A DNA stretch of 62,889 nucleotides, counting the filler, from Folioceros fuciformis (lineage: Eukaryota): the NCBI GenBank assembly GCA_049999805.1. It is 11 parts of 11 records of this genome, joined end to end, with 100 filler letters (N's around TTAATTAATTAA, not from the genome) between each part and the next. Parts side by side here need not be neighbours in the genome. Positions count along the whole stretch, not along the records: positions 46,732 to 55,738 come from JBNGIO010005198.1; 10 more parts are not named here. The stretch is one strand, 5' to 3'. This document shows, piece after piece, positions 16,220-57,309 of this stretch. The number at the start of each line of letters is the position of its first letter. The first letter of the stretch is position 1. Position numbers and translations under genes: made by a program. The notes beneath the pieces are model-generated. The model was not told where the DNA came from. It ran no database searches and saw nothing but the letters and a program-made list of their open reading frames with translations.

Positions 16220-16319
16220 NNNNNNNNNNNNNNNNNNNNNNNNNNNNNNNNNNNNNNNNNNNNTTAATTAATTAANNNNNNNNNNNNNNNNNNNNNNNNN
16301 NNNNNNNNNNNNNNNNNNN

Positions 16320-21593: not shown

Positions 21594-21693
21594 NNNNNNN
21601 NNNNNNNNNNNNNNNNNNNNNNNNNNNNNNNNNNNNNTTAATTAATTAANNNNNNNNNNNNNNNNNNNNNNNNNNNNNNNNNNNNNNNNNNNN

Positions 21694-33252: not shown

Positions 33253-33352
33253 NNNNNNNNNNNNNNNNNNNNNNNNNNNNNNNNNNNNNNNNNNNNTTAA
33301 TTAATTAANNNNNNNNNNNNNNNNNNNNNNNNNNNNNNNNNNNNNNNNNNNN

Positions 33353-38500: not shown

Positions 38501-41500
38501 GCTGCGCTAGCCCTTACAGTCGTTGAACTGTTTGGTGGTATTTGTACCGGGTTAGAAGCTTTGCTCTTGACCGGTTTGAGCATTCAAAGGTACCTTTACT
38601 GTGACAAAGACCCCGTTGCCAGGCAAATTGCTGCATTTCGGCTGCAGGGTCTACAACATCGTTTCCCACAGCAATTGTCAGCTGAGGCTTTGGCTAATAC
38701 ATTCACGTCCTTACCTCATGACGTCCAGTATATACAGCAGGGCCACATCCAAGCCTTGGGCCCCATCGACATGGTCATAGCTGGCTGGGAATGCCAAGGA
38801 TTCTCTCAAGCTGGGGTAGGTGCAGGGTTGACAAATCCACGTTCTGGTCTGTTTAGAGATCTCCAACAAATCTTGGCATGGGCACAAGATAGTAACTCTC
38901 AATGTGCATACCTGCTCGAGAACACACCAGCCCAGTTTGATACCCGGCCACAGGTGCAGCAGGATATGGCCATTGTGCGACATTTTGCAGGGCCACCATT
39001 CCTCATGGATGCTGTGCAGGTGGGTAGCTATGCCCACAGGCTTCGTAACTACTGGACCAATTTGGTCCCTGTCTCCGTGTTGGACTTGGCTCTCTGGAAC
39101 ACTAGCAGGGATCCAGGGCTGCAACTTTGTACTGTATTGGAGAACTACCACCAGCCACGACCTGTGGTGGCCAGTGAGAAAGCCCCTTGGTTCAAGACCA
39201 ACATTCCAGGTCAGCCAAGGCAGACGTTGCCCACGCTGGTCAGCTTTCCGGGTTCATTTGCTTACAGAGGAGAAGGACCTGGCTTATTATTGAATACTGA
39301 AACGCAACGGTGGGAAGAACCAACAGTTGAGGAGCGAGAGCGACTCATGGGTTTTCAAACCCATAGTACAGCGGCCCCCACTGTCACCAATCGGCAGCGC
39401 AAGGGCACTCTAGGACGAGCCATGGACCTCCATGCCATCACATGGTTGGTGAGTTTGTGCCTTGCCTTTCAGCTGCACACTCAGGTCACTCCCATGCTAC
39501 TCCCAGGCTTGTTTGCTAGCATCTGCCCTGGAGATGCTGTTCACCTCCCATTCCCAGGATACACACAGCTGCCTTTTTGGCTAGATGCTGGGGGGGGGGA
39601 GTACGCAGTATTGGCATCACGTACTGTTTACTCAGCATCTGATCAAGCCAAGGCAGAAAAGGAGGATCCAGGAGCTACACCCAAGCTGTCTGTTGTTAAT
39701 TTCCCGTGGAAAATGGGCTCAGAACTCAGTCTGAAGCAACAGGACCGCATTCGTAACTTGCTGCTTAGGTACAGGGACTGTTTTGCCTTTTCCATGCATG
39801 AGCTCAAGAGGTGCAATGTCACAACCTTTCGCATCAACCTTACCACCCAAGAGCCTGTATACAGGCGACAGTATAGGCTGAGCAAGACGGAATGGGACAT
39901 GGTGGATGCAAGATGCAAGGAGCTGTATGAGGCGAACCTAATACGTCCCTCTAACAGTGACTACGCTGCTGCCACCGTGATGCCACCCAAAAAGGACAGT
40001 CAGGGTTTGTGGACTGAGAAGAGGATGTGTGGCGACTATAGGCCCATCAATGCAGTAACTGCCCAAGATCGGTACCCAATGCCAACACCAGAGGAGATCT
40101 TTGACCGTCTTGGACAGTCTATGTTCTTCTCCACGCTGGACCTGCGACAAGGGTTTAACCAGGTCCCAGTGGCAGCTGAAGATATCAAGAAGACAGCCTT
40201 CCATGGTTCTCAACAGCTATGGGAATGGCTAGTGATGCCCTTTGGATTCAAGAATGCGCCAGTGACCTTTCAGCGCATCATGGACATAGTACTAGCTGGA
40301 GCCGGCTATCTCATGTGCTACATTGATGATGTGCTAGTCCACAGCATGGACTTCAAGGATCATTTGGTACACCTGGAAGACCTGTTTATAAGATTACGGA
40401 AGGCACAACTCACGTGCCACCCAGCCAAGTGTGAGTTTGGCATGAGCACTGTGGCGTATTTGGGTCACAGAATTGTCCCCAATGGTGTCACCCCACATGC
40501 TGCCAAGGTTCAGGCAATTATGCAGGTTAAGGAACCGACCACCGTATCAGCCCTGCGTTCATTTCTAGGGTTATGCAATTACTATCGAGTATACATACCC
40601 AATTTCAGCAGGATTGCCAAGCCTCTTAATGATCTGCTGCGCAAGGATGTAGAGTGGACATGGGCAGAGCAGGCACAACAAGCTTTTGACACCTTAAAGC
40701 TGGAGCTAACAGTTGCACCAATGTTGGCCAGACCCAATTTTAACAAGCCCTTTGTAGTTCACACAGATTGGAGTAGTCTAGGGCTAGGGGCTGTGTTGGC
40801 TCAACAGGATGAAGCAGGTTGTGAGCGTGTGGTTGCTTACGCCTCGCGTAGCAACAATCGAGCTGAAGCCAACTATAGCAGCTACGAGGGTGAATGCCTC
40901 GCTGCTGTGTGGGCAGTGTGCCACTTCAGACCATATTTATATGGTCAGAAGTTCACACTCGTGACAGACCATCAACCACTCAAGTGGCTGATGACCAACA
41001 CCAAGCTCAGTGGCAAACTCGCACGTTGGGCCATGATCCTTCAAGATTACGAATTCCAGGTTGAACATCGGCCGGGAGTGAAGCACCAGAATGCTGATAC
41101 CTTGTCACGAAATCCTGACAGCAGTTGTGTGGATACCACTGGAGCTCGCCAAGATGGAGAGTACAGCACAATGCTTGCCGTATCGGCTCTGGTGGCCATG
41201 ACTTGCTTGGGACAGGTGCCTGTAGGTGCAGCTCAGCAATCCTCCAAGGATATTTGGGAGGATCCAGCTACCCTTCAGTATGTGCAGACAGGTAGAGAGG
41301 ACCCCACTTGGACCACGGCCACAAGGGAACGAGTTCACCAACGGGCTACCAAGTATTGTTGGCGGGACGGACATCTCATCCGTCAACAGGCTCAAGGAGT
41401 GGAGCGATTGGTACCCCCACCAGCAGATCGTGCTGCCCTCATCAAAAGGGTGCATGATGACATGGGTCATTTTGGGGTCAAACGCACCTACAGCCTGTTG

Positions 41501-42721
41501 ACTCCCTATTTCTACTGGAATCGAATGCATGAACAAGTGAAGGAACGAGTAGCCTGTTGCGAGCAATGCGACCGTGTCAAGGCTTCCTTCACCATGCAGC
41601 ACCCAGAGCTGCACCCTTTGCCCATCATGGGTTTATTCTTCAGATGGTCATGCGACCTGATGGGTGAGCTCCCGCAGTCTCCACGAGGCAACCTGTATGC
41701 GATGATCATGATGGAACACTTCAGCAAGTGGGTGGAGGTAGTGGCCCTGCCAGACAAGACCTCTAGGAGTACCTCACAAGCCTTCCTACAATGTGTGCTC
41801 AGTAGGTTTGGTGGCTGCGCAGAGTGTCTCACAGATCAGGGTTCTGAGTTTCGAGGAGAATTCCAGGATCTAATGGATGCAGCCCTTATTGACCACAGGA
41901 GAACTAGCCGGGACCACCCGCAGGCTGATGGCTTAGCCGAGCGCATGGTCCAGACTATGAAGAAGGGGCTTCGCAAGCTGTGTCTCCGAGAACCCAAAAC
42001 AGATTGGGATCTCTTGCTTCCATATATTGCAATGGGTTACCGCATGAGCAAGCATGCTGCCCTTGCCCATTTTTCCCCTTACTTCCTCTTGTTTGGCAGA
42101 GAACCAATTCCACCTAGTTCTATAGCCAAACAAATGCTAGAAGTTGTCAAGCTGGATGATGCAGCTACATGGGCACGTGTGATAGGTAACAGGGCAGCCT
42201 TGTTCAAACAGGCCATGCCCATGGCAATGGCTAACTTGCACATTGCCCAGCATAGGGATACCCTTCGTTATGCACACACTAGGGGAGGCAGTTTTAGGCC
42301 CAAGCTCAGGAAGTTCCAGGTAGGAGACTTTGTTTACCTGCAGAGGCAGACCTCAGATACCCTGGACACTTCCAGCAGTCGGCATGTGTTGCGGATTCAG
42401 GAGGTCAAGCCTAATGGCATCCTGGTATTGCAAGGCTCAGATGGTCGGATCACCACTGACCACACCAAGAATTGCGCACCTTGCCACTTGCCCAATCTTG
42501 ATCCTTCTATTGTCACAGCAGATTGGATTCCACCAACGGACTATCCTTGTCAGGTTTGTCAACGCACAGATGATGCTGACCTCATGTTACTTTGTGATGG
42601 CTGCAATGGGGGTTTCCACCTTTTCTGCTTACAGCCACCACTTACCCATGTACCGGAGCAACTTTGGTATTGTCCCAAGTGCCAAACGGACACAGCAGGT
42701 GTGACCAGCCTAGGAGTGTAG
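35567..42721 (+). CDS. Gypsy polyprotein Gag-CCHC2-protease-C5 DNA methyltransferase-RT-RNaseH-integrase-PHD (first ATG 35822)
   Basis: Gag PEKFSG; knuckles CNHCGSPEHMSPAC and CTHCQKNGHVVTVC (36728-36835); protease LLDTGA (DTG at 37829); DNMT motifs (38513-39470); RT MCGDYRPIN, MPFGFKNAP, YIDD (40319); RNaseH HTDWS, TDHQPL; integrase HHCC, CDLMG, TDQGSEF, ADGLAER; PHD. Gypsy domain order, no stops. Confidence 0.96.
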   Translation: MREDLEPATSVGQPSWSPLLDLGKIVVLTSSNLGGQLVCDEEPEQQGSLYSQQSFVRSQQTHPGFAGSVLGVGQGLGDLSERSDTMEGGSSGFRPEKFSGRPSTQSLRDFRLFINAVISRVKFKHGAAYNHQYMFEQLSSYLGDEALDLYEAHQAELSGTIATPNPAHHSALQLAYNAKLAAAINDHQAEIVAKTISATTPPPTVVNLTLAERATATTGVQEFLHTCKYLNPVEEFLAILERAFPLKTPEKIAELAAFARKKGETVQMCFRRLQKLREGTGMLTNQEAAQRFLTALEGDPLFHFQLVTSLVDKYGDKYTLEQVHEEAEKKEVAFSAYASRHSKAFTHYQSMFSSKGAANTGAGAKAGQIKPIKVASAAAPAAAVVAMCNHCGSPEHMSPACKCPPEGLYCTHCQKNGHVVTVCFQKHPERRYQKIGTVGSAGATIASVEAGGTRSVVGLSRSKQQRDKAKAKAAATADKVSSLEASMAAMTAQLGVLTANLSSITGSSKPANVVKLVPGPEDEDYGPAHQVCMVDRIGESSMEVELPATWVGQNLQVVMGTTAPALGPITRNRGPRATMPKSFAPLPPGSAIPVRGQEHSTLRVEQLPTSRTPGHSMPTPEHVYLLPQTTTVTQLAAKLTQVPVFTLQDMGITTSRLKEVLQTAEATAASADPSLGTTYTSQWVLPIAMSHSTGGQTAPSHCNGSYTVQLAEGVDSQPRVQSTNRLQARVSNAVVDNRCGHVTINGYAPRVVLLDTGAQPVLVGKILAARLHLQGDALHTSPWNIRTASGAIEPVCGETVQPLDITLNSGTPDAMTLSLPCLVTTATNYDLLLGQEFLFPPGVGVDNWTEQAFYRPDWKQGGCRIAHLPLDLHGQVEVDVATLVKSPAVVGIKSSNVVELVQDTYQVDKHLETNVAEAQVRCTSLQQALVQPDCPKQAEALLTKAQEQVSKVQQLLEAGTLSSCPTSYVDNTVIIWAPAALALTVVELFGGICTGLEALLLTGLSIQRYLYCDKDPVARQIAAFRLQGLQHRFPQQLSAEALANTFTSLPHDVQYIQQGHIQALGPIDMVIAGWECQGFSQAGVGAGLTNPRSGLFRDLQQILAWAQDSNSQCAYLLENTPAQFDTRPQVQQDMAIVRHFAGPPFLMDAVQVGSYAHRLRNYWTNLVPVSVLDLALWNTSRDPGLQLCTVLENYHQPRPVVASEKAPWFKTNIPGQPRQTLPTLVSFPGSFAYRGEGPGLLLNTETQRWEEPTVEERERLMGFQTHSTAAPTVTNRQRKGTLGRAMDLHAITWLVSLCLAFQLHTQVTPMLLPGLFASICPGDAVHLPFPGYTQLPFWLDAGGGEYAVLASRTVYSASDQAKAEKEDPGATPKLSVVNFPWKMGSELSLKQQDRIRNLLLRYRDCFAFSMHELKRCNVTTFRINLTTQEPVYRRQYRLSKTEWDMVDARCKELYEANLIRPSNSDYAAATVMPPKKDSQGLWTEKRMCGDYRPINAVTAQDRYPMPTPEEIFDRLGQSMFFSTLDLRQGFNQVPVAAEDIKKTAFHGSQQLWEWLVMPFGFKNAPVTFQRIMDIVLAGAGYLMCYIDDVLVHSMDFKDHLVHLEDLFIRLRKAQLTCHPAKCEFGMSTVAYLGHRIVPNGVTPHAAKVQAIMQVKEPTTVSALRSFLGLCNYYRVYIPNFSRIAKPLNDLLRKDVEWTWAEQAQQAFDTLKLELTVAPMLARPNFNKPFVVHTDWSSLGLGAVLAQQDEAGCERVVAYASRSNNRAEANYSSYEGECLAAVWAVCHFRPYLYGQKFTLVTDHQPLKWLMTNTKLSGKLARWAMILQDYEFQVEHRPGVKHQNADTLSRNPDSSCVDTTGARQDGEYSTMLAVSALVAMTCLGQVPVGAAQQSSKDIWEDPATLQYVQTGREDPTWTTATRERVHQRATKYCWRDGHLIRQQAQGVERLVPPPADRAALIKRVHDDMGHFGVKRTYSLLTPYFYWNRMHEQVKERVACCEQCDRVKASFTMQHPELHPLPIMGLFFRWSCDLMGELPQSPRGNLYAMIMMEHFSKWVEVVALPDKTSRSTSQAFLQCVLSRFGGCAECLTDQGSEFRGEFQDLMDAALIDHRRTSRDHPQADGLAERMVQTMKKGLRKLCLREPKTDWDLLLPYIAMGYRMSKHAALAHFSPYFLLFGREPIPPSSIAKQMLEVVKLDDAATWARVIGNRAALFKQAMPMAMANLHIAQHRDTLRYAHTRGGSFRPKLRKFQVGDFVYLQRQTSDTLDTSSSRHVLRIQEVKPNGILVLQGSDGRITTDHTKNCAPCHLPNLDPSIVTADWIPPTDYPCQVCQRTDDADLMLLCDGCNGGFHLFCLQPPLTHVPEQLWYCPKCQTDTAGVTSLGV
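38513..39470 (+). other. C5 cytosine DNA methyltransferase domain, DNMT3/DRM-like, within the polyprotein
   Basis: Motif I VVELFGGICTG; HDVQYIQQGHIQALGPIDMVIAG; motif IV GWECQGFS; VI YLLEN; VIII AHRLRNYWTNL; IX EERERLMGF; X RKGTLGRAM. Canonical, non-permuted order. Confidence 0.92.
42548..42682 (+). other. C4HC3 PHD finger at the integrase C-terminus
   Basis: CQVC...LLCDGC...FHLFC...PPL..VP...WYCPKC, with all eight Zn ligands. Confidence 0.93.
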
Positions 42722-42896
42722 CTCTTGTCGTGCTCTTTCATGCTTTCAGCCCGTCCATCAGCTGGGGGGGGAAGGCATGGACAATCTTTTTGTTCTNNNN
42801 NNNNNNNNNNNNNNNNNNNNNNNNNNNNNNNNNNNNNNNNTTAATTAATTAANNNNNNNNNNNNNNNNNNNNNNNNNNNNNNNNNNNNNNNNNNNN

Positions 42897-45800
42897 CTTG
42901 TTTTAACCTCCTTTGAGCATGGCGGGGGTGACATCTCAACAGGCCCTTCTTGCTTCATACCCATGTCTTCACAAAGCTGCCTTTCCCACTCAGCCTCCTT
43001 AGTGGCTTCGGTGAGTGCCTTGTACTCAGACTCTGTGGAAGACAGGGAGATGGCTGCTAGTTTTCTACATTACCAGTTAACTACAGAGGAGTTGGCCAGA
43101 AAACAATAAGCTGATATACTTTTTCGGGTGTCTGCATCCGAAGCCCAATTTGCATCTACATAACAAGTTAGCTGCAAATGCTTCTTCCCGCTTGGCATAT
43201 AGCAAAGGCCATAATTAGGTGTACCCTTAAGGTACCTCATAATTTGCTTGATAGCAACCCATTGATCCTTTCCATGGGATTTTAGAGAATTAGGCAACAA
43301 CGTTGACTGTGTTGGATATATCGGGTCTTGTCTGATTACTTAGGAACATGAGGGTGCCAACTACCATGCGATAAGGAATATTTTCCATCTCCTTTTTGTC
43401 TTCTTTAGATTGGGGACATGAGGCAAATGAGAGCTTGACTCCAAACGCACCTGGGGTGGTTGACGCCCTAGCATTCTCCATTATGAATCGTTTGAGCATA
43501 CCGGCTACATATCTACCTTGGTGAAGATAGATAGCACCTGTGGTATCCCTATGTACATGCATGCCAAGGATATACTTAACCTTTCCCAGGTCCTTCATCT
43601 CGAATTCCCCGCTGAGGTCAGCTTTTATCTTGTTGACCAGTTCAACGTTATTGCCTGGAATGACTAAGTCATCCACGTAGAGTGCAACTAGAACAAGTGA
43701 GCTATCCTTGCGTAGCATATAAATATTAGTATCTGCTTCACTTTGAACAAAACCTATTTTCTTAAGATATGAATCCATTCTCTCATACCATAGTCATGGG
43801 CTTTGCTTAAGGCCATAAATTGAGCGATTAAGTTTACACACCTTTTGTGAACAAGCCTTATGTTCGTAATCCTCGGGTTGATCCATGTAGATCTCTTCCT
43901 TAAGATGACCATAGAGAAAGGCTGTACACACATCAAGCTGATAGATCTCCAAGTTTAGTTTAGCACATAAAGCAAGGAGCATTCTAACTGATGCAGCCTT
44001 GACGACGGGTGAGTAGACCTTATCGCCTTGACAATCCACTCCCTCTTTCTGACTATATCCCTTAGCTACTAATCTCGCCTTGTAGCGAATTCGTGGCTCT
44101 ACTTCCTGGAACTTAGTTTTAAGAACCCATTTGCACTTGACAGTGGTCCTACCCTTAGGCAGACTAACCAAAGTCCAAGTGTTGTTTTTAAGTAATGAGT
44201 TGTACTCATCATCAATAGCCAGCTTCCATTTGGCTGCCTGGGGTCTCGAGTAAGCCTCCTGTAAGGTTAAAGGATCTCCCTCTGCAGCAGCAACACTTAA
44301 GGCATAGAGAGCATCCGAAGAATTAACATAGGTTAAGCTAGCTTGATTAAACTCAATATCAAATGGTTGTTCCTTCCAGAGATGCCTAGGCTGGCGCACA
44401 CGAGTAGGATATCTACGTTCAGGAGCAGCCGAGGGCCTAGGTGGGGATGGAGGAGTGACAGGTGCTTGAGGAATATCATGGGGCACCACGTGTTCAAAAT
44501 CAACGTGTTCAACATCACCTTGTTCCATACGTGGGTCCTCAGATACTACCTCGTGGTCTATTTCTATGTCCCCCTCTTGAGCAGGAATAGGTGACGTAGG
44601 AGCGGTGCACTTGGGGAGCAGGACCAGCAATAGGCAGCACTAGAACTGCTTGAGGGATAGGAGCCATAGGAGAAGGAGGAACACTAACAGTCGGAAAAGT
44701 AAAGGGCTGAACAAAGTGATCAATAGAAGTATCATCGGAAGAGCGAGGAGTGCTCGAGCCAGAGGAAGCACCAGCTTGCACGTCAAGAGGAGACTCAAAT
44801 GACGTCGCAAGAGCAGGTACTATCTTAGCTTCATGAACGGTGACAGTGCGGGCATAGATAGGAATCTGAGAGTCCAAGTCCACGAGCTTGTAGGCTTTGC
44901 GGTCATCGCCATAACCGACAAACACCAACTTGCGAGCACGAGCATCAAGCTTGTCGCGAAGCTGTGATGGGACAAGAGCATAGGCAGGGCAACCAAAAAC
45001 ACGAAGATGTGCAATTAAAGGCTTGCTCCCATGCCAACACTCATAAGGAGTACGGCCAGAAACCGACTTGGTGAGGACTCTGTTCTTAATATACACCGCA
45101 GTAGACACAGCCTCAGCCCAAAAGGACTTGGGCAGTTGGGACTGTGCCAGCATGGCACGAGCCATGGACATCAAATCGCCATTGGCCTTCTCGGCAACGC
45201 CGTTCTGCTCAAAAGTGTAGGGCACTGTAAACTGACGCAAGACACCATGCTGCTCGCAGAAGTCGCAAAACTGATGGTTGTTTAGTTCTCCCGCATTGTC
45301 GGAGCGAATACACCGAAGTTTATGGCCAGTCTGTAACTTAGCCATAGTAACAAAGGGTGAGAACACATTAAACGAGTCACTCTTAAGACGGATAGGAAAG
45401 GCAAACGTATATCGACTAAAGTCATCCACAACAGCCATAAAGTGATTTGCTACGCCTAAAGACGAGACAGGTAGAGGACCACATAAATCAACGTGGACCA
45501 AATCAAGAGGTGCCAAAGACCGACGAGCAGGAAGAGTAGGATAAGGGGAACTTCGCTGTTTAGCAAGGACACAAGCTTCGCAGAGAGGCTGTGTTGATGG
45601 AAGGTGAGGAAGTTTATCCCGATACAAGTCCTGTTGGGAGGTGGCAAGCAGTCGAGCAGGGTTGAGGTGCCCGAGTTGGCAATGCCACAAGAGAGTTGCA
45701 CCTGGATGCGAGCTCCTATGAGGCTGGTCTCCGTGAGAGGAAACCACCGTAGAGGCAGCCGCTGAAGTCACGGGCTTGCCTGAAAAGACATATGACGAGG

Positions 45801-45997
45801 ACGAGGACGACCTTTAGCAACAAAAACCCGAGGGTTTGAAGTCCGAGATAACAGACAGTCTCCAGGGCCAAAGTTGAGGCAAAAGGATCCGTCCCGCACG
45901 AGCTGTCTAACAGAGATAAGATTCTTGGCCATCTGGGGAACATGTAGCACATTAGTAAGAAACAGCAAGGAACCATCATCCAAAGTAAAGGATCTAA
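42897..45997 (-). pseudogene. Degenerate Copia pol (protease end-integrase-RT-RNaseH)
   Basis: NVLHVPQMAKNLISV, WHCQLGH, IRSDNAGE, QNGVAEK, LDVCTAFLYG, LYVDD, YVDANWA. Confidence 0.92.
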
Positions 45998-46631
45998 TGT
46001 GTCTTTCACTAATGCGCACGGAGAAGTGAGGGCACAAGAAGAAAAGATTGGCAAGCTCTATTGCTTGAGTGGGAGCGTTGTCATGCCGAGGTCGAGCATT
46101 GAGGAGGCAAATGTGGTACAAAAGAACACTAACAAGTTGCTCTTATGGCACCAAAGGCTAGGACATCTTGGCGTTCAAAACATCAAGCTCATGGATCGTA
46201 AGAAAATGGTGCAAGGACTCGATCTTGGTGAAGACGAAGACATTGGCGTTTGCAAAGGGTGTATTATGGGTAAGCAACACCGCCTTCCATTTCCAAAGCA
46301 AGGAAGTAGATCCAATCATTTGTTAGAGGTGGTGCATACAGACATCTGTGGTCCCATGAAGACCACATCCATAGGAGGTGCTAAGTATTTTCTTACCTTC
46401 ACGGATGATAAGTCTAGATATACGAAGGTGTACTTTTTGAAATCCAAGGAGGCATGCTTCTCCAAATTCAAGGAGTACAAAGCATTTGTGGAGAACCAAA
46501 TTGGGAGAAAGATCAAGACTCTACGAAGTGACAATGGAGGGGAGTACATGTCCAAGGAATTTGAGATGTTTTGCAAGGAGCACGGAATTGTTCATCAATT
46601 CTCAGCACCTTATAGTCCTCAACAAAACGGA
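45998..46631 (+). mobile_element. Copia GAG-pre-integrase/integrase fragment
   Basis: LWHQRLGH, VHTDICGPM, LRSDNGGEY, PYSPQQNG. Confidence 0.9.
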
Positions 46632-46731
46632 NNNNNNNNNNNNNNNNNNNNNNNNNNNNNNNNNNNNNNNNNNNNTTAATTAATTAANNNNNNNNNNNNN
46701 NNNNNNNNNNNNNNNNNNNNNNNNNNNNNNN

Positions 46732-46950
46732 GGATGCAGTGACCTTTCCAACGATGGACTGGCTGGTGACAGGGAAATGTGTGGCATGGAATGCACTGAT
46801 TCCTAGGAATGCAACGGAGGGGCTCGGCTGATCTGTATGGACGTTTGTTCTGTCTGGACAGAATGGATCAGGAGGGCCTGATTTTGGCGGACTATGGCAC
46901 TTCTGCGTGCATTCTCAATGGCTTTGCAAGCTCTGGTGCCTTGACGAAGA
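46732..46950 (+). pseudogene. Degenerate PPR repeat remnant
   Basis: VAWNALI and MDQEGLILADYGTSACILNGFASSGAL in shifting frames. Confidence 0.55.
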
Positions 46951-47130
46951 TCAGGGAGCCGCACGGAATGTGCTTGAGGAGTGTTGTTTGAGGATCCGTG
47001 GTGGAAGCAGAGCCTGCAAGTGCCACATGCGCAGCAGCTGAAGATGCGGCGTCTTTCGGTGGATGACAGGGACTGGTAGTCTCTCGCGTCCCTGTGCTGG
47101 TACGGAAGGGGAGGAGTTTCGGGGAAGGGC

Positions 47131-48249
47131 GTGCGGCGATACCTGGCGGATCCCTCTGTTCCTCGTTCCTGCTCCTTGTATCGCGGCGTGGCAGGCGAGC
47201 TTGGCCCTGTCGGGCCTGGAGGATACCAAGTGGATGTGATGCGTGAAACAGTGAGCAAGCTGTGTGAGGAGGGTCGGCTCAAGGAGGCTGTTGAGGCTTT
47301 GGGAATTCTGGTGCAAGTAGGGTGGCACGTTTCCAAGTCCCTCTTGTATACGGTGCTCAGGGGGTGTGTTGTACAGAAGGATCTTCTTCTAGGGCGCCGT
47401 GTGCACGCTTTCACGGTTCAGAAGGGGTACCAGTCGGACACTTTCCTGGGCAACCACCTTCTGCGATTGAACGCTTCTCATGGCAGATTGCAGGACGCGA
47501 TGGATGTGTTCACCGTCGTTGCCAGTCCAGATGCCTTCATGTGGTCTTCCATAATTTCTGCGCATGTGAAACGGGGACTGCACAGGCAGGCTGTAGAGCT
47601 GTATCGTAGGATGCGCAGGTCGGGTGTGGAGCCCGATAGCCATGTTTTCGTGTCTGCCCTCCAGGCGTGTGCAAAGGGGGAAGATTTGATGGCTGTCCAG
47701 GAGCTGCATGCCGAAGTATTGGCCAGTGGGTTTGGGCGGGATTTGTTTGTTTGTAATTGCCTTGTGGATGTGTATGGGAAGTGTGGCAGGCTGCGAGAGG
47801 CTAGAAGGGTGTTTGACGGACTCGTTGAGAAGGACGTTGTGATGTGGACTACCATGATATCAGGGTACTCCCAGCAGGGCATGGGGCAGGAAGCACTTCT
47901 TGTCTACAGTGCTATGCTGGAAGGAGGCCTGGCTGTACCCAGCTCTGTGACTTATGTCTGCCTCCTGCAGGCATGTGCAAGTGTGGGCGACCCTGCTCTG
48001 GTGACGGGGAAGCAGCTCCATGAGCTAATCAGAGCACAAGGACATCTGGCTAATGTGTCTGTAGCCAATAGCTTGGTGAACATGTATGCGAAGTGTGGCA
48101 GCCTAGAGGATGCCCACAGATTGTTTTGTGAAATGGGTCAGAAAGGCGTGGTGACGTGGACTGCTCTAGTTGCAGGGTATTCCTTACAGGGCAAGGGCCA
48201 GGAGAGGTCAGACGTTATTTGGCAAACAAGCCTAAGGTGGTTGTCATAA
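47131..48249 (+). CDS. PLS-class pentatricopeptide repeat protein, C-terminally truncated (possible pseudogene)
   Basis: Repeats FMWSSIISAHV, CNCLVDVYGKCGRLREARRVFD, VMWTTMISGYSQQG, ANSLVNMYAKCGSLEDAHRLF, VTWTALVAGY. Homology ends mid-repeat at ~48204, with no E/DYW domain. The upstream in-frame ATG at 47044 is blocked by TAG at 47077. Confidence 0.88.
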   Translation: MRRYLADPSVPRSCSLYRGVAGELGPVGPGGYQVDVMRETVSKLCEEGRLKEAVEALGILVQVGWHVSKSLLYTVLRGCVVQKDLLLGRRVHAFTVQKGYQSDTFLGNHLLRLNASHGRLQDAMDVFTVVASPDAFMWSSIISAHVKRGLHRQAVELYRRMRRSGVEPDSHVFVSALQACAKGEDLMAVQELHAEVLASGFGRDLFVCNCLVDVYGKCGRLREARRVFDGLVEKDVVMWTTMISGYSQQGMGQEALLVYSAMLEGGLAVPSSVTYVCLLQACASVGDPALVTGKQLHELIRAQGHLANVSVANSLVNMYAKCGSLEDAHRLFCEMGQKGVVTWTALVAGYSLQGKGQERSDVIWQTSLRWLS

Positions 48250-48692
48250 ATGCTTGTCGAGGCACTGGCAGTCGGGCGAGAAGCATGAAAGCACAGGAGT
48301 CGGGCCCCGCCGACGTTGCCACTACCAGCAAAGCCAACGGGTCAGACGTTCAGGGAAGCCAACTTGTCAGAAACAGAGTTCGACTATTGTCTTCTGTGAA
48401 AGACTGCCTCACAGTTTTCTCCACCAGTCCTGGAGATGCATCTTTGAGAGATGTCGAGGAAGGCACAAACTTCATCATAGCTTTGATGGACGCCATCGTG
48501 GAGGGCTCTGAAACAGAAGATGTCTTGAGCATTCTGACAAGCGTGATTGGCGAGGTGACGGACAAGGAGGTCCAACACAAAACCAAAGACGGGGACTATG
48601 AGAAGAAATATCAGTGTCCTGAGTTGCGCTTCACACTTACCAAAAAGCTATACTGGTCTCGACCACCCCCGACTCCTGTCATGCCTGGCTAG
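48204..48692 (+). CDS. Caspase-like (peptidase C14A-type) C-terminal half: catalytic-Cys strand, linker and p10 subunit
   Basis: LANKPKVVVINACRG ... DCLTVFSTSPGDASLRDVEEGTNFIIAL ... DVLSILTSVIGEV ... YQCPELRFTLTKKLYW. This parallels animal caspase LxGKPKLFIIQACRG / DFLxAYSTxPGxxSWR..GSWFIQ / KQxP....LTKxLYF. Confidence 0.8.
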   Translation, partial: EVRRYLANKPKVVVINACRGTGSRARSMKAQESGPADVATTSKANGSDVQGSQLVRNRVRLLSSVKDCLTVFSTSPGDASLRDVEEGTNFIIALMDAIVEGSETEDVLSILTSVIGEVTDKEVQHKTKDGDYEKKYQCPELRFTLTKKLYWSRPPPTPVMPG

Positions 48693-50499
48693 AGTGAGTA
48701 GCATGTGGCCAGGGCCTGTAATGCCTTCAATCAAGTGTGAGGTTTGCTCTTGAGCTACATGTTGTTGGTCTATTAAATATTGCCTCTGATAAGTCTTGTC
48801 ACTTCTACCTTGCCTGGCATTCTTTTCTGTTTGGCTAGAGAGACCTCTCACAGCGTCCTGATGGGGATGAACAGATGATGCCCCATGGAGGCTATGCGTA
48901 GGGAGGGAAGAACGTGCGCGCTTATACACACCCAGTTGCAGCTCTTGGTTTTCACAGGCAAGTGAGTGATCCAGATTTGCGCCCTTGTGGCTTTCACTTG
49001 CACACTGTCAGGATGTACCTTTCATCATTCCGACCAGCCGAAGCTTGGTCCCTCAGTGAACTCGCGTGTGGAGCTTCTGCCTTCAAGTCACAGTGACACC
49101 AGACAGAATCGAGGGGTAGCTCACTACTTTTGTTAACTAGATTACCTTTGCTAGCGCATCAGCTGAAGCACATGCACAGGCATAGTTTTTAATCATCCAA
49201 TCGAGGAGCAGACGTGCGCCATGTGTGCCTTCCTTCCTTTGGCCATAAGAGAAGGATCACGAAGATGAGAAACAATTAGCCGTCACAGGAGCATGGCAGC
49301 AGGACATGCCGAAGCTTCGCCCTTCTTCACCATCTGCTCCGTGTTCGGTTTGCCAAAATCGTTCTTTCGGATGATGGGCCACTCGTCTCACAATCCAGTT
49401 TCTACAGCGTTACGATGAGAAGTACAGCTTCAGCACACTTATCTCTCGTCTTTGCCTTTCAATCTAGCTTGCACCTTGCATGTCTGTGCTTCCCAGTCCC
49501 AACTCCCTGGCAAGAAGAGCTTCCAGCCATCGCTTGCTGGCAGGTTGCGGGGCCTTGGGCCAACGAGTTGCATCCTGCCGCACCTGACAGAACCTTATCA
49601 GTATTTGCACTTGAGGAATGGTAAGGTGGGAGCGAGTGCCCTCGCCAAAGGGTTTTGCGGCAGGGACCTGAACTTGCGGGAGAAGAAGGAGGGAGTTGCT
49701 TCAGCACCTGGCCAGCATTCTGGCGTCTGCTCCCGAATTCAAGAATCTGCAACAGCATGACACCAGCATGGATGTGGCCGGAGCGCATGGATTGGGATGA
49801 TCTTCCGCTCTGTTCCACGCTCCGCAAGTTTATGCGATGTTGGAACACGGCGATGCATTCTCAGGTCTCATTCCCCGCAGCCTCGGGCTGCACCCGCTCT
49901 GATGGTAACGCCTCCACGTCTGGAATCACAGAGCTTCCGTCGGCTGGATGTCTGAGAGGAGAAAGCGTACGGCGGACCTGTCGGAGGCTGGGAAGACTTT
50001 GTACATGTTTTGCATAATGTAGACATGTTGACGGTAGATAGATTTTATGTTTCCAAACACCTAGACTCGTCCTCTAGGCTTGGTTACACCATGAAGACTC
50101 TATTTGTTCCCATTAGCTGGATTTATTTATTAAATATAATTTGGTGTATTTTTATACAGAAATACAGGTTCATATTGTCTCGTTTCTAGATCAAGAAACG
50201 CATATAGTTCAATACAATATCATTTGTTCTATACAATGGTTTGAGATGGCAAATAAACATGTGGTGTTGTATTATTTGCTTTAGTGTCAGTGTGCAATCC
50301 ATTGAACCTACAACTTGTTTGCAAAGGTTATTGGACACAGTCACGATGTTGTGCACAAAGAGGCAAGATGACATAGTTTCTTTTCTGGTGTCATCCAACC
50401 TTGTCTCTTCTCTTTTATGGTAAGGTCCAGCCAAGTAACCTGATGGTTCCAAGGGTGAGGTTGTCTATCTATCAGCAACCCTCTGCTCTCCATCTCCTC

Positions 50500-51000
50500 T
50501 GAATGGCAATTGGTGTCCCCCTAAAGGTTAGGCTGTTGTGATCTGGTGTTTTTTTCAAACTTACTTGCCTATGGCGAATCAGTGGGATAGTTTGCTTATT
50601 GCAGCTCAAGAGGAATTCTACAAAATGTGTTCAATAGGTGCTCCAAACAAAAATCAACACCTATTCTTTGAGTGCGACTATGTGTAAGTGGTTTGGAGGG
50701 AGGTCGGCAAGTGGTTGCAATGTCTCTTTCCAACGGTAGCAAATGTTGTTGTTACAAAATAATCAACTCTCTTCGCAAAGTCTTAAGGAATCATTTAGCA
50801 AGTCACTATTCAAGTTCCAATGCTGGGGGCTTATTGCAGAGCTTTTGTCTCACAAGTGTATGGTTGAACTGAACGGTAGTGGTTTTTGGTGGGAAAGAAC
50901 CACTGTTAGTCTGTAAGATTTGGGAGCAAGTTTTGATTGCAGAAGAGGGAATAAAGTTAGGATTCCAGGGAAGGTCAAGTGTAGTGTAATGGAGATGGGT
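50500..51000 (+). mobile_element. Decayed LINE ORF2 3' end (zf-RVT)
   Basis: VPLKVRL (~50515) and HLFFECDYV*VVW (~50658-50696). Confidence 0.55.
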
Positions 51001-51660
51001 TGGCTTCCTCGCCCTAAGGAGGGAGGTGAGGTGGGATCACTCATGCTCTTGCAGAAGGCAATTTTTTCTTGTTGTCCTTGATTTCAAATGTCGGGTATAT
51101 AATTCCGTCATGCTACATATTGTATTGCATGTTTGTTGGTGTGTCGAACTGCTGCTTATGATACAACCTTCTCAGGTCTCCTCCTTTTCTATGCCTGTTT
51201 GGCAAGAACAACCTCTCACACGGCCTTGGTGTGGATGAAGAGATGATGAGTCATGGAGGCCATGTGTAGGGAGGGAAGATGGTGCTATGGTTGTACATAG
51301 CTGGGAGCTCTTGGTTTCAAGACGGAAGTCCAAGTTTGGGATCTTGTAGTGTTTACATTGTCTTGTATGTTAGGGTGAGAATGTATGCTTCATCTTGGCT
51401 TCCTGACCAGCCAAAAGCAACTGTGAGAGAGAATGTTCCAGCTACTTCTTTTTTTCAGGATTTTAATTTTAATTTTAATTTTTAATATTAAAAAGATAAC
51501 TAACATTACCATGAAAAAAGCCTTAAGCAGATCTATACTCGGTTGCTGAAAGGTGAGGACTCCTATAGGTGAGGACTCCTATAGCTCTAAAAGAGCTCTA
51601 AGAGTTTTCTACCAATACCTATAGGGACATCTATATTCGTTGGAAACAATCATGGATGAC

Positions 51661-52410
51661 GAGAATTCGACTCCTTCATTGTTTGAACGACATTCTCGTG
51701 GTTTCTCCACAAGTCCTGGAGGTAAATCTTGTGGTGATGTGAAGGAAGGCACAAACTTCATCATGGCTTTCATGGACGCCATCGTGGAGCACTCTATGAT
51801 AGAAGCGTGATGAACATGCTAACAAGCGTGATTCGCAAGCCCGGGGGCATGGAGGTTCCGCAAATAACCGTACAAGGATGGGAGGAAAGATTCCAGGGTC
51901 CCTAGGTCGATAGAAAGCGCCAGTGGACTTGATCATTCCATGCCCTCCATATGCCTGGCTGGCGTGTGGCGAGCTGGGGCCTGTAATGCTTTCAAGCAAA
52001 TGTTAGGTATCGTCTGCAGCGACATCCTGATTGTTTGTGGGTGACTATATGAAACTGCTTCTTAGAGCATTTTCTGTCTTCTCCCTTTCTACACATTAAT
52101 TCCTGCTTGGCCAGAGAGACCTCTCACCGCGTCCTGATGTGCATGAACAGATGATGGCTCATGGATGCTATGGGTACGGAGGAAAGAACGTGTGGGATTG
52201 CGGTTTCATACACAGGTCCAGCTCTAGGTTTGAAGAGGCTTGAAGAAGTATAGAATGGTGGTCTTCTGGTTTTCACATCTTTCGTTTTCATCTTTAGGAT
52301 GTATATTCCAGTTTCCGAGCAGCCAACTAAAGCTGGAGCAGGATGTCGCTCACTCAAATCGCATCTGGAGCTCCTTAAGAGCCTTCATGTAACAGTGACA
52401 CTAGACAAAG
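51661..52410 (+). pseudogene. Decayed duplicate of the caspase-like p10 module and its 3' flank
   Basis: RIRLLHCLNDILV, frameshift, FSTSPGGKSCGDVKEGTNFIMAFMDAIVE. DNA colinear with ~48376-49110. A third copy of the flank alone lies at ~51185-51410. Confidence 0.82.
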
Positions 52411-53984
52411 CCTGAGGCTACCACGTGCCTTCCTCGACACTTGCTTAACAGAAACAGATACGAGTGATGGTGGCTGCAGGTCACGCCTCATGAAGTGAGG
52501 ATGAGCTCTTCAAGAGTTCCGACCGTCAGGAATTTGTTTTTGATCGAACTTGGCCCACTGCTGGAAGAGTGTCGGATCGATCGTGGTACATGCTAGTCCT
52601 CGGGACTGGGAATTTAATGCCAGAACTACAGCAGAAAGGGAATAGTAGGACGGGGTTGATTGTGCAAAGCCGTGATGCAGACCAGATTTAGCCCCCGCGG
52701 CCCGGTGACGGAAATGCGTCAGGTGTATTTCGAGCCTGGCGAGCTTGCCAGTGCCACGCAAGTAATGCAGTGGAAAGCGTGCGCGTCTGACTGGCTTGGA
52801 GAACTGTCGCAGCCCTTCTGTTGCTTGTTCATGGTTTGATCTTTCGGCTTGCTTTAAGGGGGACCAAGGGCACGTCAGGCAGTGTGGGACAATTTCCTTG
52901 CGGACAGCACTACTTGCAAGGTATGGTGCTCTGGTGGCTGAGGATTAGCTGTTGAATTCGAGAGCACCGAGGCACGGACTGCCACACAGCCAAACGCGAG
53001 ACATGGTGACAACCCTATCTAACCACCCAGGTGCAATCCGAATGACTCGATGATCGGACTTGGCACGAGAACAAGACTTGGGCAACACTGCTCAGGGCAC
53101 CAAGCAGGCGGGGCAACACTTTGCGTCCAGCGGCAACAAAAGCAGACAAGACGCTAGCTCTCAGAGGAAGGGTTTTCGAGCGCGCGGTCACACTATATTC
53201 GTAAGATAGCCACTTTGCTTTGCTCACCTTTTCTTCTACCCTTTTCGGCTTTAGAGTCAAACCAGCCAACAACCGCTAGCTCGTAAAGCATTTACTGCAT
53301 TTTGAACTTAGAAAGATATTTTAAGACTACGAACTTTAAATACATATTTATTTTCTGTCATTCCTAATTTTAAATACCTACATTATATATATATATGTAT
53401 ATATCACATACAATTTTTCATTCAAAATGAATTCACGAAATTTGGCCCTTGCGCGCTTGGTCCCGACAAACCGCGTTCCCCCTGATGAGTCCAAAGGAAG
53501 GGTCACGACGATGACTGGGCTAGGAACCTTGCTGACCTGAGCTGAGGTGGGTCCTAGCGCCCACAAACCTGCAGTACCTGCCTTCCATGTAAAGGAAGAC
53601 ATCTTTGGTGCATGTGGTGTTGTAACAAGTAGGGGGTAGGGCCGACAGAATTGGAAGGAGGGTTGGAAGCAGCAGCTGAGAAAACTTTAGCCTTTGGTGT
53701 CTGTCGTGTCGTGTCGTGTCTTGTCCACGATGCTGGGCGGCCCCGTGAGTCCACAACACCTAGGTAGGTGTGCTTTGATAAAATACTGAGCGCGCACAAG
53801 TATGTATGGAGCAGGAATATCCACTGGTCACAGACACAGAAAGAAAGAGCGTGGGGAAGGGGAAAAGCCAAGCACAAGCACAAGCACGCTCACGCGTTGA
53901 TGAGTGGAGGGAGAGTGAGTGAGACCTGGCAGCTCTTTTGCCGGCTACCACACAACCCTCTCGTCTCGGACATTTAAGAGACCT

Positions 53985-54372
53985 TGTGTGGTGGTGTCCC
54001 TATCTTTACCCAGCGAGTGTGGTGTGAGGTTGTCGTCCCCTAGCCTATCCGTGTCTGGTGTTCCAATCGGGATCTTCCTCAAGTGTGTATGATGTGAGAT
54101 TGTGGTCCCCTAGCCCATCCGTGTCTGGTGTTCCAATCGGGATCTTCCTTAAGTGTGTGTCCTGTGAGATTGATGTCACCGTCCCCTAGCCTATCCTTGT
54201 GTGGTCTGCCAATCCTCCTCGAGTGTGTTATTGGGAGGTTGCTGGGTGCTGGCCTATCCTTGTCTGGTGTCCCAACCCTCCGCGCGTGTGTGCTTGTGAG
54301 TTGCCTTTCCCGTAGCCTGTCCTTGTCTGCTGTTGCAATCCTCGAGTGTGTGCTGTGAGGTTGCTGCCCCTG
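53985..54372 (+). repeat. Degenerate tandem repeat (~55-70 bp unit, ~6 copies) upstream of the LRR gene
   Basis: Recurring GTGTG..GTGAG(G/A)TTG..CCCCTAGCCTATCC.TGTCTGGTGT.CCAATC units. Confidence 0.8.
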
Positions 54373-54443
54373 CTACAAAACGGATGATACATACAATCCA
54401 TTCATCTTATTTGTTTGCATTGGGAAACGCAGCTTAGCACAGC

Positions 54444-55738
54444 ATGGCGGAGCAGGAGGACTATGACTGGCGCGAGTTGCCGGAAAAGCTGCAACAGCTG
54501 CTGGCAGGTCTGGAAGGGCACGCCTTGACCGAACTCCCCCTCTTGCACGGAGAGGAGTACGGCGGTTTCTTCAGAGAGGGAGCTGCAACGGTCAGAGATG
54601 GCAGGCACTGGCGAGTGCGCAAGCGGGTATTGACAGCTATTGGCCAGTGCCGCAGTCTCCCCGACGAGCTGGACATCTGTGACAAGTGGGGGATCGGCGT
54701 CGTTCGGGAGGATGAATGCGCGGTTCTGTTGGAGGGCTTGGCATCCAACCCTTCCCTGGAAGATCTTGAGCTTGAGCTGGCTGGGTGCTCAGGTTTTGGA
54801 AGGCTGGCGGGTTGCACGGCCCTGGGCCAGCTTATTGCTACCAGTCGCAGCTTGCGACGGCTGACGGTGCAGGATATTGGGCTTGATGCCGCTGGACTTG
54901 GTGCCCTGGTCAATGGCTTCGACCAGGATTCTGTCCTGGAGTATTTGGACCTAAGCTGCAACAGAGTGGGAGATGGTGAAGGGGCACAGCACCTGTCTCG
55001 CATGCTGGCCACCGCTCCCCGTCTCGAAGTCCTGTATCTGGCAGATATCGGCATGGATGAGGAGGGAGCCCAGTCTATTGCAAACGCTCTTCCGCACTGT
55101 GCCTCGCTCAGGGAGCTTACCTTGGAGACTGCTGGATATTGGGGTTCCGTACAGGACAGCCTGGGGCCCATGAGCATTGTGTTGAAACTGGCTTTCAGCC
55201 GTGCTGATGCTGAGGCAGATGCTCCCATATCTGGGGTCACCACGCTGACGTTGTGTGCCGAGACCAGTGAGAAGGAGGCCTGGGAGGGGTCAGCCTGGGT
55301 CGACGCGCTGGGCGGAATGTTGCGCACCAACGATTGTATCACGGAGCTTAGGATCAATTGTTGTGTTGTCACGTTCGGCATGGACGCCTGGCGCCACAAC
55401 TCCACCCTCTCCACACTTGAGTTGTCTTATTGTCACGAGCCGTTAAGTGAATTTTCGATGTCGTTTCTGGAATGCAAATCTTTACGCAAGCTGTGTTTGA
55501 CAGGAATAGAGGGGCCCTCCTTCATGAAAGCGTTGGTGCAGTCTTTGGAGCAAAATACATCTTTGAAGGAGCTCTGCTTTTCGGAGTTTTGCCAGGGACT
55601 CGACGGTGAGCTGTTCAGAGAGTTGATGCAGACCCTCCAAGTCAACACCACTTTACAGAAGATCGACATAACGGAGACAAACTGGGGGACAGAGGGAAAG
55701 CAGGCCATCATCAACGCGACGTTGGCACGCAATGTTAG
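54444..55738 (+). CDS. Ribonuclease-inhibitor-type LRR protein, TORNADO1/Roco-like N-terminus, truncated by contig end
   Basis: SLEDLEL, SLRRLTVQDIGLD, VLEYLDLSCNRVGD, RLEVLYLADIGMDEEGAQSIANAL, NTSLKELCF, NTTLQKIDI. ATG start, open to the gap. Confidence 0.82.
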
Positions 55739-55838
55739 NNNNNNNNNNNNNNNNNNNNNNNNNNNNNNNNNNNNNNNNNNNNTTAATTAATTAANNNNNN
55801 NNNNNNNNNNNNNNNNNNNNNNNNNNNNNNNNNNNNNN

Positions 55839-57309
55839 ATTTTATACGGTTTAGATACGTATTTAATATATACTGATATGTATATCGTATACGTACCCCC
55901 GTATTCCTTTTCTTTTTATTTTCCTAATTTCCCCTTTTCTATTGTCTTCCCTATTTTTATGGATTTAATCAGTCCTCCATGGCCGAGGAACCATTTCGGC
56001 TGGGAGCTGATCCTGCTGAATAAGCTACCGTTTTCAGTCCAGGTTCCGGCTGCTGATCCCACTCCTTCCCACCTCTTCTCTATCTTTCCCATTGCTCATG
56101 CTCCTCCCCTAGAGGCTGGCTCAGCCACCAAGGGTGAACAGTTGCAGGGGAAGACTTAGCGGGCGACCATCCAACAAGGAAGAGGCGGCGTCCACAGACC
56201 TTTGAAGATCAGACATCCTCCGAAGTCTCTGGATAGTCTAAGAGGTGGTAGATCCTTATGGTGGCGGGGCCAGGAGCTCATTGGTGGCAGGTTGTGCTAG
56301 AAGTCTAAATAAGTGGCTGGTGACAGCCGGCTAGGCTATTAAAATAATATTTCTCAAGTTAGAGAGAGGTGAAGTCAGAGAGAGAGAGAGAGAGGCTCCT
56401 ATAAGATCAGGTGAGCCTGTAGGAGGAGGGAGTCATTCACTTTGGGAGTCAGTCTATCTCTTCGTGAGCTCTTGGAGGTCCTCTCTTCATGAGCTCTTGT
56501 GGTCTGTCCCTGCTTGGTTTAGGACCTGCAGTGTGTTGTCGGCTGTGCAACGTCTGGTAGGATCGCAAGCCGTGTGTTGCCGGCTGTACAGTGTCTGGTA
56601 AGATCGCAGGCAGTGTGTTGCCGGCTGTACAGTGTCTGGTAGGATCGCGGGCAGCGTGTTGCCGGTTGTATAGTGTCTGGTAGGATCACAAGGTGTAAGG
56701 ACCAGGGTGAAGGGGCTTGCCCCTAGCTCTTGATTGTAAAGGGTGTGTCTTTCTCTCGACCTGTCCACTCTTGTTCCTTGCTTGGTCAAGTGTTGTAGGC
56801 CGGCCATGTTTAATGGCATCTGGTAAGGTTGTAGGGGGGAGATATCCAAGAGGGGAGTGTGTTCCCTTCTTCCTTTTGTTTGGGGTTAGTCTAGTGACTC
56901 TTGCCGGGTAGGAGGAGTCAGTAGGGAAGTGTACAAGGTAGTGGTGTCGTTGCTGGTTGCTGGTAGTTGCTAGTGTTGGTGCTGGAGTGAGAGAGTGAGT
57001 GAAGTGTGTGAGGGAAGTCGCAGATCTGAGAGGTTAGAGTCGTTGTAGTGATTGGAGTGAGTTTGTGGGCACCGAGAGAGGTGCAGCTGACCGCCGGACA
57101 GGGAGGCCTGTCCTACGCCTGATCGGAGCTGGAGGGGAGCCCTCGAATCCATCATCGAGTTGATCAAGTCCGACCCTCCATTCACAGCAGCAAGGAACCC
57201 CATCGCTCCTTCGTGGGAACGAAACCCAATGTCTCAACAACAGTGGGATAAGTGTGGCCACTAAAGGTGGAACCCGTTGGCAATCAGTGCCTGGGGTTTT
57301 GCCTCCACA
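55839..57309 (+). repeat. Long Gypsy-type LTR, copy 3, ending ...GCCTCCACA
   Basis: Homologous to 20287-21593 and 16097-16219. Ends in CA and abuts an interrupted integrase. Confidence 0.8.
56528..56691 (+). repeat. 41-bp tandem repeat x4 inside the LTR
   Basis: GCAGTGTGTTGCCGGCTGTACAGTGTCTGGTAGGATCGCAG-like units at 56528, 56569, 56610 and 56651. Confidence 0.9.

Follow-up and report, generated by a model that had tools for sequence, protein, structure and literature searches.

A 5'-truncated caspase-type fragment beside a broken PPR gene in a Folioceros fuciformis assembly points to a probable undescribed caspase-type family

Results

A caspase-type fragment adjoins a truncated PPR gene

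We analyzed a window of 62,889 nucleotides from the Folioceros fuciformis genome assembly GCA_049999805.1, in which a preliminary description had recognized an animal-type caspase module next to a plant PPR gene. Both lie on the scaffold JBNGIO010005198.1, one of 11 small, unplaced scaffolds (1.5-9.4 kb) that are chained in the window by ten N44-TTAATTAATTAA-N44 linkers. Because the window is a chain of separate scaffolds, neighborhood across a linker is meaningless. The locus comprises the following features of this single scaffold.

46732-55738, no strand: scaffold holding the caspase-type fragment, 9007 bp, N-free, flanked by the linkers at 46632-46731 and 55739-55838
47239-48203, plus strand: truncated PLS-class PPR coding sequence, first ATG at 47239, frame open over 47080-48249
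48204-48692, plus strand: caspase-type fragment (C-terminal end of p20, linker and complete p10), stop codon TAG at 48690-48692
48228-48263, plus strand: active-site strand KPKVVVINACRG, catalytic Cys at 48255-48257, Asn at 48249-48251 replacing the usual Gln
48264-48401, plus strand: inter-subunit spacer of 46 residues with two Asp-Val sites, GPAD-V and NGSD-V
48402-48656, plus strand: p10-like subunit, DCLTVFSTSPGDASLRD ... GTNFI ... QCPELRFTLTKKLYW
48693-49740, plus strand: non-coding 3' flank, repeated together with the fragment according to contig depth
48742-48874, plus strand: 3' intron of the fragment copy (copy A), GT..AG, 133 nt, starting 50 nt after the stop codon
51195-51317, plus strand: copy C, a relic consisting of a 3'-flank piece only, 123 nt, 76% identical to 48827-48951
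51660-52407, plus strand: copy B (decayed), p10 remnant and 3' flank, 67% identical to 48416-49105
52007-52150, plus strand: GT-AG intron of copy B, homologous to that of copy A and skipped in a contig with no mismatches from run X3

The reading frame of the fragment stays open from 48132 up to its TAG (48690-48692), and caspase homology begins at about 48198-48219. The QACxG-type pentapeptide around the catalytic Cys is present within INACRG (48246-48263), with Asn for Gln, and its C, R and G are invariant across the family alignment (A2). The p10-like subunit opens with DCLTVFSTSPGDASLRD at 48402-48452, which includes the codon for the p10 arginine of the S1 pocket (48447-48449) and is followed by GTNFI, and it closes with QCPELRFTLTKKLYW at 48612-48656; eight of its residues (D, L, S, S, R, G, Q and L) are invariant in the same alignment. 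In the structures of caspase-1 and caspase-3, the basic S1 pocket that receives a P1 Asp is formed by an Arg of p20, the Gln before the Cys and the Arg of p10. The fragment keeps the p10 Arg and has Asn for the Gln, while the p20 Arg falls within the half that is absent.

All of the motifs quoted in the preliminary description, including the Cys at 48255-48257, GTNFI and the substitution of Asn for Gln, are found where it had placed them, but two of its measurements needed correction: the linker that it gave as about 30 amino acids counts 46 residues from CRG to DCL, and five residues rather than four separate the D from STSPG. The two Asp-Val sites in this spacer are putative processing sites, judging from their sequence. 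The spacer also contains the sole in-frame ATG of the fragment (48285-48287), which is 3' of the Cys codon. We ruled out that an intron separates the Cys strand from p10, since the length of the linker is as in relatives (44 residues in the related protein P0002).

The module is of the caspase type rather than the metacaspase type

Pfam PF00656 (Peptidase_C14) matches 48204-48689 on the plus strand with an E-value of 1.6e-17 (64.4 bits, cut-off 21.4), and the match pairs fragment residues 2-150 with profile positions 111-233 of 233, covering only the C-terminal half of the profile. When the fragment was compared with the PDB by phmmer, 149 distinct chains were matched at E<=1 (top chain 3.2e-7), and each of the best 60 is a caspase-7, a caspase-3 or an ancestral effector caspase. 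A HMMER search of 1.84 billion representative proteins returned 146 matches at E<=1e-3, the top one only 37% identical; the metacaspase motif D[AS]CHSG occurs in none of the 146, whereas [QN][ACS]CxG occurs in 128, and 20, some of them animal, have Asn before A/C-Cys. In the ESM Atlas the nearest clusters are chordate caspase clusters (0.95). From the PF00656 match, the caspase-3 and caspase-7 chains, the absence of the metacaspase motif among the 146 relatives and the Atlas clusters, we conclude that the module belongs to the caspase (C14A) branch. The caspase-type assignment made in the preliminary description is thus upheld, and the best hits to metacaspases or non-C14 proteins that would have spoken against it were encountered neither among the best 60 PDB chains nor, by motif, among the 146 relatives.

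Searches beyond these relatives gave little. A word-indexed protein search with the fragment returned no matches at near or longer lengths; prokaryote genomes (GTDB representatives) gave four pattern matches but no relatives; and IMG/VR viral contigs gave no pattern matches. A fold search of BFVD found only distant viral caspase-like or metacaspase-like proteins, at 16% identity or less (best 3.3e-11). A giant-virus origin is not supported by the IMG/VR and BFVD results, and we found no support for viral or prokaryotic sources in general. Metagenome contigs contained 26 loci, all distant, of which the nine longest matches have 26-33% identity and the remainder are short segments.

The fragment is a 5'-truncated relic

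Homology of the neighboring gene to PPR proteins (Pfam PPR_2, E 1.3e-40; PPR, E 2.4e-39; PPR_1, E 3.7e-24) stops at 48203 after ...GYSLQGKGQE, and is followed by 15 unrelated codons and a TAA at 48247-48249; the C-terminal E/DYW domains are therefore missing. An internal PPR repeat, 48067-48203 against 47755-47891, ends exactly at the same position. Since PPR homology ends at 48203 and caspase homology begins at 48198-48219, the overlap between them is at most a few bases. The fragment and the PPR gene are in different frames, and a PPR-caspase fusion protein was ruled out because of this difference and because the PPR frame stops at 48249. GC content, the observed/expected ratio of CpG (0.5-0.7) and GC content at third codon positions show no break at the junction, a continuity that we regard as weak evidence of residence.

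When ten family proteins were searched by tblastn against the entire window, the only matches were 48198-48722 and, weakly, 51703-51804, and no His half was recovered. The remark in the preliminary description that the His-Gly half of p20 was not visible is borne out by this search: the catalytic His (S/A-H-G in p20) is found neither at the locus nor anywhere in the window. Because the catalytic His is absent, the locus is a fragment of a caspase gene and not a caspase gene, and since it is without the His half, the p20 arginine and an upstream in-frame ATG, and is out of the PPR frame, it cannot act as a protease by itself. We regard this copy as a 5'-truncated relic, of an ordinary pseudogene-like kind. 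It encodes Phe at 48630-48632, where the family consensus, which is kept by contigs of paralogues, is Ser.

Decayed copies B and C lie 2.5-3.5 kb downstream of the fragment. Copy B is frameshifted, no longer has the S1 Arg (SLR to SCG) and ends prematurely at a stop after ...MIEA; its 61-amino-acid frame had no match in a Pfam scan. Copies A and B are old, as they are only 67% identical.

Two further observations concern the PPR side. The peptide VRRYLA occurs both at 47134-47151, upstream of the PPR start, and at 48207-48224, among the first residues of the fragment, each time after a G-x-G context; the DNA differs at 7 of 18 bases, all synonymous, and the recurrence may be fortuitous, or may go back to a degenerate PPR motif or to an older junction. 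PPR-like remnants (VAWNALI..., ...MDQEGL...) precede the PPR frame at 46732-47000 (plus strand), with a loose contig end at 46801; these remnants are frameshifted, so the scaffold starts inside another decayed PPR unit.

Contigs from public runs suggest several copies that are transcribed and spliced

We placed contigs from three public runs with the same organism label: X1 and X2, DNA runs of one sample from 2025, and X3, from another study in 2017. The run evidence consists of contigs rather than reads, contigs at least 90% alike were placed, and the summed depth is not copy number. Contigs of X1 and X2 match unique parts of the scaffold with no differences. Over 48237-48838 the summed depth is 105-182 in X1 and 72-105 in X2, compared with about 7-8 (X1/X2) over the unique stretch 50043-50945; across the 3' flank (48693-49740) it falls from about 105 to about 29, and after 49742 it is at a single-copy level of about 6-8. 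This suggests that the caspase element has several to many similar copies. The last bin of the PPR gene has a summed depth of about 4900, which suggests hundreds of similar copies and is consistent with a land plant whose PLS-PPR family is very large.

X3 has zero cover over 50043-50945. One of its contigs, with no mismatches, joins 51800-52004 to 52149-52407 and thereby removes the copy B intron (52007-52150). The copy A intron is skipped in three X3 contigs and in no contigs of X1 or X2; here the contig joint runs from 48738 to 48872, and we moved the boundary by 3 nt to fit GT..AG, with one mismatch. From the GT-AG skips and the zero cover over 50043-50945, we infer that X3 is RNA, in which case the contigs suggest that copies of the family are transcribed and spliced.

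Full-length relatives form a clade of their own

A word-indexed protein search with a profile of the family found 13 proteins. Beyond the general caspase motifs, the family is marked by [VS][NS]AHG, (F/V)INACRG, VFST..G..S.R and KKLYW. Among 30 relatives looked up, organism names were obtained for 12, of which 11 are animals (insects, molluscs, a turtle, a sea cucumber, hemichordates and a sea anemone) and one is a hornwort. The hornwort protein, P0010, is a Nothoceros aenigmaticus transcript and falls inside the clade of the fragment; the remaining family members come from Logan, JGI or ENA assemblies.

We built two unrooted trees, one with FastTree from 121 rows and one with IQ-TREE from 60 hand-picked rows under the LG+C20+F+G4 model, neither of which included metacaspase or paracaspase rows. 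With IQ-TREE the fragment and the hornwort protein are in a 13-row clade, separated from the 47 other rows by a branch of 0.69 with a support of 97 in the Shimodaira-Hasegawa-like approximate likelihood ratio test (SH-aLRT). With FastTree the fragment is in an 18-row clade (support 91) beside a sea-cucumber 'caspase-8' pair, but the IQ-TREE tree places the sea-cucumber protein away from the clade. One candidate member, P0024, was rejected because it is outside the clade in both trees. The preliminary description had proposed a horizontally acquired or otherwise unrecognized family; the trees agree with it in giving the family its own clade (SH-aLRT 97), but horizontal acquisition is not shown. 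We think that the clade is probably an undescribed caspase-type family encoded by plants.

Full-length members carry AHG, NACRG and both pocket arginines, and H95, R37 and R181 are nearly invariant in alignment A3. The profile of the family matches caspase-6, -7 and -3 in the PDB at about 1e-43 across the full domain, and the best 60 chains are all caspases. In the profile alignment R-R-G, A-H-G, N-A-C-R-G and S-x-R of the family pair with the pocket arginine, the His, the Cys strand and the p10 arginine of caspase-6, the pocket arginines of the relatives being aligned to its RRG and SHR. An AlphaFold2 model of one member, P0014, which is found on 17 contigs, has a predicted local distance difference test score of 93.2 and a predicted template-modeling (TM) score of 0.92. 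The top Foldseek matches listed for this model are all caspases (caspase-7, -6, -3, -8 and -9, CED-3, Spodoptera caspase-1 and a coral caspase), with E-values of about 1e-18 and TM scores of 0.7-0.85, so P0014 is predicted to adopt a caspase fold. Neither metacaspases nor paracaspases occur among these matches or among the best 60 PDB chains of the fragment and of the family profile. A Pfam scan of nine family members found no CARD, DED or other prodomain or domain.

The motifs suggest that full-length members probably work like caspases, with a His/Cys dyad and a basic S1 pocket made of Arg, Asn in place of Gln, and Arg. Such a pocket would take an acidic P1 residue, and activation would occur by cleavage of the linker.

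Origin of the fragment

The explanation that we favor, and consider reasonably likely, is that the plant's own genome has a multi-copy caspase-type family, of which the fragment is a truncated member without function, rearranged against a broken PPR gene. A lineage-specific C14A-like family of cysteine proteases would exist in multiple copies in the nuclear genome of a land plant rich in PPR genes, and a duplication or rearrangement would have set the last ~160 codons of one member, together with its intron-bearing 3' region, against a broken PLS-PPR gene, with the junction at 48203/48204. This event would have taken place at the DNA level rather than by retroposition because the 3' intron is retained, and the same intron rules out a processed retrocopy. 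That the family is resident in the plant and expressed would follow from the contigs described above.

Several points weigh against this explanation. Full-length members are known only from other assemblies, the organism itself having been searched within the window only, and the range of the family, even its plant origin, depends on two data points. The hornwort open reading frame is incomplete, being without the N-terminal strand and the p20 arginine, and has a ~70-residue insert rich in Lys, Arg and Glu between the His and the Cys strand; it may be the product of an aberrant transcript or of a decayed copy. At the locus, the fragment keeps all of the family-invariant residues within its span, more than an old pseudogene should, and no contig or read bridges 48203/48204 among the placements listed. 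The RNA status of X3 is itself deduced from the run classification together with the GT-AG skips and the zero cover over 50043-50945. Finally, the five best-supported in-frame differences between paralogues are all non-synonymous, though they are too few to judge selection.

Capture and multiplication of the fragment by a transposable element, which we take to resemble the way in which Pack-MULEs and Helitrons pick up gene pieces, is compatible with a plant-resident family and, although we consider it unlikely, has several features on its side. It would account both for how numerous the near-identical copies are and for why pieces of two unrelated genes lie side by side, and it agrees with the high summed depth of contigs at least 90% alike, the abrupt ends and single orientation of the gene pieces, the occurrence of P0014 on 17 contigs and the retrotransposon content of the rest of the window. 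A repeat scan of 46000-56000 revealed, though, no terminal inverted repeats, long terminal repeats, target-site duplication or transposase around 48204-49740; the depth declines gradually, with no sharp end to the element; copies A and B are too dissimilar to be young; and a tandem cluster of decaying paralogues fits the same data.

It is also unlikely that the scaffold is contaminated or chimeric, with the sequence from 48204 onward derived from an associated small animal or protist and mis-joined to the PPR gene, and with the hornwort transcript a contaminant too. Such an origin would accord with the animal identity of 11 of the 12 named organisms, with the derivation of other family members from Logan, JGI and ENA assemblies, with the short scaffold and fragmentary assembly, with the lack of a bridging read among the placements listed, and with the caspase homologues published for the protist Reticulomyxa, as described in excerpts of PMC5982838. 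The overlap of the two homologies, however, is about 6 bases at most, too short for a mis-join by k-mers, and the low identity (37%) of the best relative among the 1.84 billion proteins excludes any sequenced animal as the source. The element is present both in the 2025 DNA runs and in the 2017 run of another study with the same organism label, contigs with no mismatches cover unique and copy B sequence in the runs, three copies occur within 4 kb with single-copy DNA between them, and composition is unbroken at the junction. The preliminary description had argued against simple contamination from the position of the module beside a plant PPR on a gap-free contig. The PLS-PPR gene does adjoin the fragment with no N between them, but the contig is only a 9007-bp scaffold in a composite window, which makes the argument weaker than claimed.

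We regard as improbable a third alternative, that the fragment is a live small gene, in which translation from the ATG at 48285 would yield a 135-residue protein of linker and p10 without catalytic residues that might regulate the full-length members by pairing with them. There is a model for this in c-FLIP, a catalytically dead caspase-like protein that acts as a regulator. The frame is intact with all family-invariant residues kept, spliced X3 contigs with summed depths of 891 and 496 cover the 3' region, and P0002, the nearest relative in one tree, is likewise an open reading frame starting just before the Cys strand. Depth at 90% likeness, on the other hand, is not assignable to copy A; no transcript start or promoter was seen; the Phe at 48630-48632 departs from the consensus Ser that paralogue contigs keep; and about 50 nt separate the stop codon from the 3' intron.

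The origin favored in the preliminary description, a recent horizontal transfer of an animal caspase gene into the plant lineage, is very improbable: the named close relatives outside the clade are all animal caspases and FastTree puts the sea-cucumber pair beside the clade with a support of 97, but the site-heterogeneous model moves the sea-cucumber protein and sets the clade on a long branch of its own, not within a named animal group, identity to animal proteins is only 30-40%, the family has spliceosomal introns and old copies, and the unrooted trees fit ancient transfer and vertical descent with loss elsewhere alike.

Other features of the window

Frames for Ty1/copia-type gag, integrase and reverse transcriptase occupy most of the other scaffolds, and the window is a sample of the repeat portion of the assembly. 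An Rfam scan of the window gave no matches. The remaining features are as follows.

6975-7074, 16220-16319, 21594-21693, 25718-25817, 29869-29968: N44-TTAATTAATTAA-N44 linkers 1-5
33253-33352, 42797-42896, 46632-46731, 55739-55838, 61296-61395: N44-TTAATTAATTAA-N44 linkers 6-10
4587-6599, 8380-12475, 21694-24299, 26574-28141, 30966-32906, 43794-46631: Ty1/copia-type frames
35561-42721, plus strand: Ty3/gypsy-type polyprotein (protease, reverse transcriptase, RNase H, integrase; C-terminal PHD finger), an uninterrupted frame of 2386 amino acids
54444-55738, plus strand: frame of a ribonuclease-inhibitor-type leucine-rich repeat (LRR) protein, at least 431 amino acids, ATG start, running off the scaffold end
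60677-61267, minus strand: DUF7869 frame (Pfam E 4.9e-37)

The Ty3/gypsy-type polyprotein has a borderline match to C-5 DNA methylase between protease and reverse transcriptase (PF00145, E 2e-4, 21.3 bits, cut-off 22), which is reminiscent of retrotransposons that carry a methyltransferase. The LRR frame is downstream of the caspase relics and is described here as a neighbor; in Pfam it matches only LRR_4, below threshold (E 4.5e-4), and its nearest ESM Atlas clusters, LRR_6 and TMOD-LMOD LRR proteins, are drawn from mixed taxa and hold no clue to lineage. Tandem repeats with units of 70 nt and 63 nt lie directly upstream of it at 54002-54311. The frame adjoining the DUF7869 frame (59988-60800, minus strand) matched no Pfam family.

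Discussion

Animal effector caspases (caspase-3, -6 and -7; MEROPS C14A) are the best matches of the fragment and its family in both sequence and fold. The xACRG Cys strand, the p10 SxR arginine and the terminal Q.P....L.KKLY[FW] strand are common to both, linker length is similar, and the full-length relatives share the His-Gly and the p20 Arg. The family differs from them in having Asn for Gln before A-C-R-G, AHG rather than SHG and a terminal Trp in the relatives, no Pfam prodomain in the nine members scanned, and a clade of its own; the local copy is without the whole His half.

Metacaspases (C14B, types I-III) are the only C14 proteases whose presence in plants is accepted. They share PF00656 and the clan CD fold with the fragment, but their D[AS]CHSG is absent both from the fragment, which has INACRG, and from all 146 nearest relatives. 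Like c-FLIP and caspase pseudogenes, the local copy is derived from a caspase and has no working dyad; c-FLIP, in contrast, keeps the whole fold, while the local copy is a C-terminal half with no start codon before the Cys.

Outside animals, caspase-branch C14 proteins have been described in the foraminifer Reticulomyxa filosa, according to excerpts of Klim et al. (2018; PMC5982838); these caspase-like proteins are a precedent only for occurrence outside animals. Caspase homologues are also reported from bacteria in excerpts of PMC10565124 and PMC5982838, and in the former the same authors hold that plants have no caspases. Excerpts of four other sources, extending to 2026, likewise present caspases as confined to animals and plants as without homologues (PMC5756287; 10.1101/2023.04.28.538660; PMC13272413; PMC13170818). 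Subscription journals and supplements aside, we found no report in the literature of a caspase-branch family in a land plant.

The locus described here is only a relic, valuable because it points to the family. A wider proposal, which we hold tentatively and a shade less readily than we would doubt it, is that at least two land-plant lineages, that of the window's organism and the hornwort Nothoceros, carry and express genuine caspase-type proteases distinct from metacaspases, probably with an intact His/Cys dyad and a basic pocket that would be directed at Asp or Glu. If this is true, the rule that there are no caspases in plants would be wrong for part of the plant tree. Caspase-like activities in plants are ascribed to unrelated proteases; some of them could then have a direct enzymatic source in those lineages. 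If a land plant encodes a caspase-branch family in repeated copies, and splices and expresses it, the questions of when caspases originated and of whether some plants make use of them would be open again.

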